Shown: in pieces, positions 5,898 through 6,126 of the stretch
Numbering within the stretch: position 1 is the first letter of the stretch
Layout: the number at the start of each line of letters is the position of its first letter
Virus record (IMG/VR): IMGVR_UViG_2675903575_000010
Coordinates: 1 to 10,664 of that record
Direction: 5' to 3' (one strand)
Length of the DNA stretch: 10,664 nt
Source of the DNA: a virus
Taxonomy: Duplodnaviria > Heunggongvirae > Uroviricota > Caudoviricetes
Notes under the pieces: model-generated
Told to the model about the DNA's origin: nothing
Databases searched by the model: none
Seen by the model: the letters and a program-made list of their open reading frames with translations, nothing else
Program-made: the position numbers and the translations under genes

Positions 5898-6126
5898 ACT
5901 GTTCACCACTGTTCACCATATCATAAATGTCTTTTATATCAGTATATTATAGGGTGAACAGTTATTTATGAACTGTTCACCAAACTATTCACTGTTCACC
6001 TTTTTGATTGTTTATTGAGCTTAAGGGTGAACAGTGGTGAACAGTTGGTGAATAGTTTTTGTGAAACTGTTCACCCCTTAACACCATGAATAAAAAGGGA
6101 AAATCTCAAAAGGTGAACAGGTGAAG
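5898..6126. repeat. Replication origin iteron array: about 10 copies of ACTGTTCACC / GGTGAACAGT in both orientations with an AT-rich spacer
   Basis: Copies at 5898-5907, 5908-5917, 5953-5962 (reverse complement), 5972-5981, 5991-6000, 6026-6035 (rc), 6036-6045 (rc), 6047-6056 (rc, 1 mismatch), 6066-6075, 6112-6120 (rc). AT-rich stretch at 5918-5950. Confidence 0.8.

Follow-up and report, generated by a model that had tools for sequence, protein, structure and literature searches.

Analysis of the window, the whole 10,664-nucleotide stretch of DNA under study, suggests that the repeat array at 5898-6165 is very probably the vegetative replication origin of a Gram-negative phage-inducible chromosomal island (PICI), a parasite of phages in E. 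coli, and that the replicon is of the alpha type of the satellite phage P4. The original prediction of a satellite origin bound by its own initiator is upheld at the level of sequence, as the homology of the protein, the presence of the P4 type-1 repeat, the P4 ori layout and the precedent of EcCICFT073 all point to it. An origin of this kind and a near-identical allele, that of EcCIRM13514, are already published. The array would thus mark where a frequent family of E. coli PICIs starts its replication, and tie this origin to the replicon of P4, the biochemistry of which was studied decades ago; this link yields predictions about the residues and bases that set specificity and about the arm that melts.

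Organization of the repeat array

The decamer ACTGTTCACC is present between 5898 and 6121 in eight exact and two one-mismatch copies on both strands, and its 8-mer core TGTTCACC in nine exact copies and one with a single mismatch (5900-6119). Two decayed copies (5984-5993 and 6120-6127), which are intact in relatives, bring the array positions to a total of 12. Tandem pairs or runs (5898/5908 and 6026/6036/6047) occur along with inverted pairs, in agreement with the original prediction of about ten copies in both orientations. The first decamer begins at 5898, 12 nt past the stop codon of the initiator gene (5883-5885), and this is the gap that had been predicted after ORF 4080-5885. When the whole 10.6-kb window was subjected to 200 dinucleotide-preserving shuffles, 0.52 matches to ACTGTTCACC were expected by chance, and 13 matches were reached in 0 of the 200. 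The window holds no second iteron cluster; a lone extra exact TGTTCACC at 5312 is within chance. Two details of the original prediction had to be corrected: the AT-rich stretch exists, but measures 35 bp (5918-5952, 17% GC) instead of 33, and the conserved element runs past 6126 to ~6165, with an A/T-tract tail that is kept in relatives. The individual features are collected in Table 1.

Table 1. Coordinates of the putative origin and of the flanking genes in the window
Feature	Position	Strand	Remarks
Initiator gene	4080..5885	+	601 aa: N-terminal ~133 aa, SF3 (D5/P4-alpha type) helicase, C-terminal winged-helix (~493-589)
Iterons 1 and 2	5898..5917	+	Direct tandem ACTGTTCACC ACTGTTCACC, outer pair of the left arm
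Spacer A	5918..5952		35 bp, 17% GC; proposed melting region; homologue of the P4 ori 35-bp spacer
Iteron 3	5953..5962	-	Inverted
Iteron 4	5972..5981	+	
Decayed iteron	5984..5993	+	ACTATTCACT, overlaps the next copy; full copy TATTCACC in relatives
Iteron 5	5991..6000	+	Inner end of the left arm
Central spacer	6001..6025		Dyad axis of the whole array near 6013
Iterons 6, 7 and 8	6026..6056	-	Inverted, at 6026/6036/6047; the last is ACTATTCACC (one mismatch)
Iteron 9	6066..6075	+	
Spacer B	6076..6111		36 bp, purine-rich; homologue of the spacers within both P4 crr units
Iteron 10 and decayed copy	6112..6127	-	GGTGAACAGG with abutting decayed copy GGTGAAGG
A/T-tract tail	6122..6165		Conserved, ...AAAATGCAAAAATTTTATTTTATTG
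ORF81	6172-6417	+	phrog_1231, function not assigned
SSB gene	6414-6836	+	The island's own

The layout is written along the initiator-coding strand, with > and < for exact copies by orientation, } and { for one-mismatch copies and numbers for start-to-start distances. The array of the window then reads > 10 > 43 < 21 > 19 > 33 < 10 < 11 { 21 > 44 <, each arm being made of two tandem sites, a spacer of 35-36 bp, one inverted site and two or three tandem sites. The array as a whole is a 230-bp quasi-palindrome with its centre near 6013, as evident from the agreement of 5898-6012 with the reverse complement of 6013-6130 (80/122 identity, z=8.1) and from the 8 of 10 sites that are mirrored about ~6013 (null P=0.007). 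The mirroring of the arms also explains the strong fold of the array as single-stranded DNA (z=-6). The iteron centres are helically phased (R=0.88 at 10.6 bp; p about 1e-4, or 0.002 after the period scan), and the iterons therefore lie on one side of the helix. Spacer A contains the third least stable 30-mer in the entire window.

A structured RNA was rejected as a reading of the region, as Rfam gave no family and only sub-threshold microRNA-hairpin matches, which are due to the palindrome.

The arrays of relatives were aligned for nine loci from five genera, namely Escherichia, Klebsiella, Citrobacter, Raoultella and Pectobacterium. Invariant columns make up 81% of the iterons as compared to 33% of the other columns (p=1.5e-11), and the layout is kept among the relatives, in which two full copies, 8 bp apart, occupy the site of iteron 10 and its decayed neighbour. 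The dyad is kept as well, with 12/12 sites mirrored in EcCIRM13514, 10/11 in vB_KppS-Ant and 8/10 in the CFT073 iteron class; in this last class, which has a different iteron, the mirror centre lies at the same offset.

The initiator protein

Pfam recognizes the domains D5_N, DUF5906 and Pox_D5 in the initiator, and a weak similarity to the papillomavirus E1 helicase. Over residues 134-591, the initiator shares 50% identity with residues 313-771 of P4 alpha, a region that comprises the helicase and the origin-binding domain, and residues 493-589 match PDB 1KA8, the solved origin-binding winged-helix domain of P4 alpha, with an E of 2.4e-24. The N-terminal part is different, as residues ~1-133 leave only a faint alignment trace with the alpha primase domain, and the initiator has none of the motifs that mark the primase of P4 alpha (zinc-finger cysteines, EGYATA and DxD). 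The same primase motifs are absent in 27 of the 28 proteins of 540-660 aa and present in P4, and a zinc finger together with an EGYATA-like motif is found in 42 of the 45 relatives of at least 780 aa (~800 aa). The label primase-helicase in the original prediction is therefore not supported; the protein is an SF3 helicase-initiator, for which a primase nature cannot be demonstrated from the sequence. RefSeq calls the same gene product a 'DNA primase family protein', a name that probably misleads.

Two observations on the N-terminal domain (4080-4480) may be added. It is conserved among the PICI-type proteins despite the absent primase motifs, and it matches just a slice of one PHROG 'DNA primase' profile. 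The AlphaFold model of the N-terminal 157 aa, built from the single sequence, had a pLDDT of 48 and was too poor for a fold search.

Relationship to the P4 replicon

The facts on P4 used for comparison are drawn from its annotated GenBank record, secondary citations and background knowledge. In this record, TGTTCACC bears the label 'ori type 1 repeat' at ori (9310-9413) and at crr alike; crr, the "cis required region for replication", starts 46 bp past the alpha stop codon. The repeat in P4 ori has an extended form, ACTGTTCACC, which is identical to the decamer of the window. The P4 ori layout is > 10 > 43 < 22 > 11 > 10 >, and that of one crr unit is < 14 > 18 } 43 < 9 {. The left-arm spacings of the window (10, 43, 21) closely follow those of P4 ori (10, 43, 22). 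Spacer A is identical to the P4 ori spacer at 19 of 35 positions in ungapped alignment (p=0.007) as compared to p=0.53 for the crr spacer, whereas spacer B agrees with both P4 crr spacers at 21-23 of 35 positions (p=0.0002-0.0006) as compared to p=0.67 for the ori spacer. Each P4 crr unit is closed by an A-run/T-run of the same kind as the tail in the window. The homologies of spacers and tail, taken together with the layout, therefore identify the array as the union of a P4-ori-like and a crr-like arm.

The array shares with the P4 alpha-type replicon the homology of the initiator, type I iterons in both orientations and the ori layout, and differs from it in the lack of the N-terminal primase motifs and of a distant, separate crr. 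In P4, 4.5 kb separate ori from a duplicated crr, whereas in the window one ori-like and one crr-like arm abut in a single cluster. P4 alpha carries the N-terminal primase motifs (zinc finger, EGYATA, DxD), unlike the initiator of the window. P4 has a terminator, t-alpha, whereas no t-alpha-like terminator precedes the array. The sid, delta and psu genes of P4 are missing from the island, which has a capsid-protease fusion and a small-terminase-like gene instead.

The position of the array, directly after an alpha-type gene, is that of P4 crr and not that of P4 ori, and both spacer B and the A/T tail have their homologues in the P4 crr units. These features would also fit an array that is merely a crr-like auxiliary in cis, such as an enhancer or a second binding platform, with initiation taking place elsewhere, as P4 ori lies 4.5 kb from crr. 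Such a role is quite unlikely, however, as the left arm agrees with P4 ori, and not with crr, in layout and spacer, the window offers no other TGTTCACC cluster at which initiation could be placed (the copy at 5312 being within chance), and the equivalent region acts as ori in the CFT073 allele (PMC6092414).

The reading of the array as a complete origin with two arms opens a new, if modest, angle: an ori-like and a crr-like arm are contiguous and mirror-symmetric here and after the alpha genes of Xenorhabdus/Photorhabdus. This arrangement suggests that P4 crr could be the second of two arms that together form the site at which the alpha-type helicase is loaded, the split arrangement in P4 (presumably bridged by DNA looping) being derived; we put this forward tentatively, as a possibility that is more doubtful than probable. 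If it is true, PICIs and the alpha-type loci of Xenorhabdus/Photorhabdus retain both arms together. The array is a compact natural construct for asking what role P4 crr has.

In Xenorhabdus/Photorhabdus, genes for alpha proteins of P4 length (~813 aa) directly precede an array that opens as > 10 > 43 < 21 > (420 bp downstream scanned). These arrays thus open with the P4-ori layout and not with the P4-crr layout.

Co-variation of initiator and iterons

The pairing of wing motif and iteron was followed over 86 loci, 80 from a genome scan and six named elements; the counts include related sequences and do not represent independent events. The wing motif of the window initiator is KRKTKHGLRSN. All 62 loci with the strict wing-motif pattern (62/62) carry at least four TGTTCACC sites downstream, as compared to 0/20 loci with other wing motifs, which have GTCTCCACC, TGTCTACC or ACTGTCCGCC arrays at the same position. 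Iteron/wing pairs of the other classes are AAGTCTCCACC/RKKSTKGNMRSN, TGTCTACC/...PDKGR... and AACTGTCCGCC/...ATRGR.... Four loci missed by the pattern nevertheless have four sites or more. Conservative variants of the wing, for which the pattern was too narrow, are found in P4 (KRHTKQGIQTN) and EcCIRM13514 (KKRTKEGVRSN); of the remaining two loci, one has a frameshifted gene and the other a near-cognate iteron. The co-variation is the signature expected of an initiator that reads its own iterons, and supports this reading.

The original prediction that the array defines replicon specificity is borne out in so far as wing motif and 8-mer co-vary. The specificity is not private to the island, however, but, as the shared motifs indicate, common to P4-type satellites, EcCIRM13514 and vB_KppS-Ant. 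As a corollary of the tentative two-arm reading given above, this PICI allele and the P4-type satellites would form one replicon-specificity group with the same iteron and wing motif, and the two satellite families could cross-activate or interfere when sharing a cell.

A dense intergenic repeat cluster in a packaged element might be a packaging (cos/pac) or recombination site, or else a chance or selfish repeat with no function, and the array has a 17-nt string in common with a region near the terminase-like gene. We find this scarcely credible. The lambda-cos-like repeats are located elsewhere (6869-6949, 9406-9478 and 10287-10340), the 8-mer co-varies with the DNA-binding domain of the helicase and not with the terminase, and the enrichment, phasing and cross-genus conservation of the sites exclude chance.

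The same initiator type and a TGTTCACC-type array are found on the K. pneumoniae plasmid pKpnB3_1 (locus 4196-6290) and in vB_KppS-Ant (9938-11960). Both elements have full sets of capsid, portal and connector genes and are of a capsid-forming, PICI-like kind; one of the two sits within a 70-kb plasmid.

Comparison with PICI and other origins

Gram-negative PICI origins have been described in Fillol-Salom et al. 2018 (PMC6092414). The origin lies immediately 3' of pri-rep and consists of iteron sets around an AT-rich region, an organization stated there to be found in no other known bacterial replicon. A rep-ori segment of EcCICFT073 supports plasmid maintenance, deletion of rep or ori impairs this maintenance, and the ori deletion cut colony numbers significantly. 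Helper-phage induction and rep-ori dependent replication are reported for EcCICFT073 only. EcCIRM13514 is one of the four Pri-Rep alleles named (Fig. S10 of PMC6092414); its Pri-Rep is 86% identical to the protein of the window, and it carries the same TGTTCACC array.

The window conforms to the PICI pri-rep-ori module, as its putative origin lies immediately 3' of pri-rep with iteron sets around an AT-rich region, its Pri-Rep falls with one of the described E. coli alleles, and the neighbours are shared (DUF4222 upstream; a small ORF and ssb downstream). EcCICFT073, the allele that was tested, and EcCIIHE3034 have the layout of the window, but their repeat is CTGTCTACC and their wing motif is different. 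EcCI042 uses an unrelated helicase of the RepA family. According to PMC6092414, the Pri-Rep proteins of PICIs are different from P4 alpha, and the text consulted holds no mention of a P4-type nature of the present allele. As judged by alignment, however, both the protein and the DNA of this allele are directly homologous to P4, and the layout is that of P4 ori.

SaPI origins have 6-12 iterons just downstream of rep, which flank an AT-rich region and run in opposite directions on its two sides, and SaPI Rep is a helicase with a C-terminal winged-helix for which self-loading as two hexamers has been proposed (PMC9371898). The SaPI iterons are, however, penta- or hexanucleotides and Rep belongs to a different AAA+ clade (PMC9371898), whereas the iterons of the window have 8-10 nt and its initiator is an SF3 helicase of the D5/P4 type. 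No sequence homology was found, and the likeness is best described as functional analogy, not membership. A further parallel is offered by the palindromic origins of some eukaryotic viruses. In SV40 and the papillomaviruses, SF3 helicase-initiators (large T antigen and E1) act at dyad-symmetric sites beside an AT-rich stretch; their binding sites and DNA-binding domains are unrelated to those of the window.

Proposed mode of initiation

From the features described above we infer how binding, melting, ring loading and priming may proceed. After excision, the initiator would bind the TGTTCACC iterons of both arms via its C-terminal winged-helix domain, occupying 10-12 phased sites in two mirror-image arms around the dyad near 6013. 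The left arm would correspond to P4 ori and the right arm to one P4 crr unit. Cooperative binding may then melt spacer A, which is the best candidate on account of its base composition, with the A/T-tract tail as the second. As a putative self-loading SF3 helicase, the initiator would load its rings for bidirectional theta replication, and the SSB of the island, encoded immediately downstream, may coat the separated strands. Primers would likely come from the host primase, as the initiator is without the P4 primase motifs.

Neither a + strand sigma-70 promoter nor a terminator was predicted in 5700-6500. As the initiator gene and ORF81 are not separated by a terminator, transcription into ORF81 must pass through the array, and iterons of many plasmids act in both initiation and control. 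The array might on these grounds be mainly an operator or a copy-control element, at which binding of the initiator regulates read-through into ORF81-ssb and the packaging genes or pairs origins (handcuffing). We consider this very unlikely, as the array itself contains no predicted + strand sigma-70 promoter and the P4 homologues of both the protein and the sites are replication elements; a control function is more plausibly secondary than exclusive.

The island and its distribution

Genes of the window include those for a tyrosine integrase (1-1242), for small regulators, for a DUF4222 protein and for the 601-aa initiator, followed by a small ORF, SSB, a fusion of a ClpP-like protease with the major capsid protein and a small-terminase-like protein of the Nu1 type. 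An island beside tRNA-Pro/yejM in E. coli UTAK-5 and other strains matches the window at 100% identity, and this locus is one of the Gram-negative PICI attachment sites listed in Table S1 of PMC6092414. The integrase, the AlpA-type regulator, the main genes on the + strand and the attachment site are those of a PICI.

A placement of the island at cspD-clpS was rejected, as the island found there in E. coli MSHS 133 shares only 4032-10664 with the window, the own site of which is yejM/tRNA-Pro. The shared part is 97% identical, and the ori region alone matches at 100%. The left part (1-4031), with the integrase and the regulatory genes, is unrelated at the DNA level to the MSHS 133 island, the mosaic breakpoint being close to where the DUF4222 gene ends and the initiator gene starts. 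As only the right part is shared, the replication-packaging half has therefore been exchanged between PICIs with different integrases.

The 286-bp array was found in 594 of 5426 complete E. coli genomes, in up to six copies per genome, and is unannotated in all records among the matches listed. The genomes with up to six origins of the same type indicate that several islands of the same specificity coexist in one chromosome.

A sister island is represented by the complete, closed circular record NZ_CP148328.1 (10,790 bp, 'plasmid pZ1323HEC0475-3'), which carries int, alpA, the initiator, the array and the capsid-protease fusion. The record opens with the att core ATGATAGTTAT, and this core also borders the integrated copy in MSHS 133. 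This record is the excised form of the sister island and gives circumstantial support to an autonomous form; it could also reflect excision without replication.

Several further repeats were noted in the window. An element of ~55 nt is present three times, at 6869-6949, 9406-9478 and 10287-10340 (two direct and one inverted, 89-94% alike). The part of it at 9443-9478 is GGGGCGGCAGACGCGCGGGTTTTCGCTATTTATGAG, which resembles the left end and cosN region of phage lambda. Two cosN-like sites have been reported in EcCICFT073 (PMC6092414). A 24-nt direct repeat (88%, with 17 nt exact, ATGAATAAAAAGGGAAA) joins 6079-6102 in spacer B to 9517-9540, and the latter copy sits between the cos-like site and the small-terminase-like gene.

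In the left part, the similarity of the mechanically called 372-aa ORF at 1983-3101 to an Icd-like cell-division inhibitor is confined to the C-terminal ~50 residues; RefSeq has a much shorter Icd-like gene here, and the long ORF is probably over-extended. The same regulatory part contains a tandem 22-nt repeat (GTGGGCCACACCT..., 2762-2806) and a 25-nt palindrome (AAAAACAGTGGATACCGTTTTAAAA..., 1666-1707), each of which is a possible operator.
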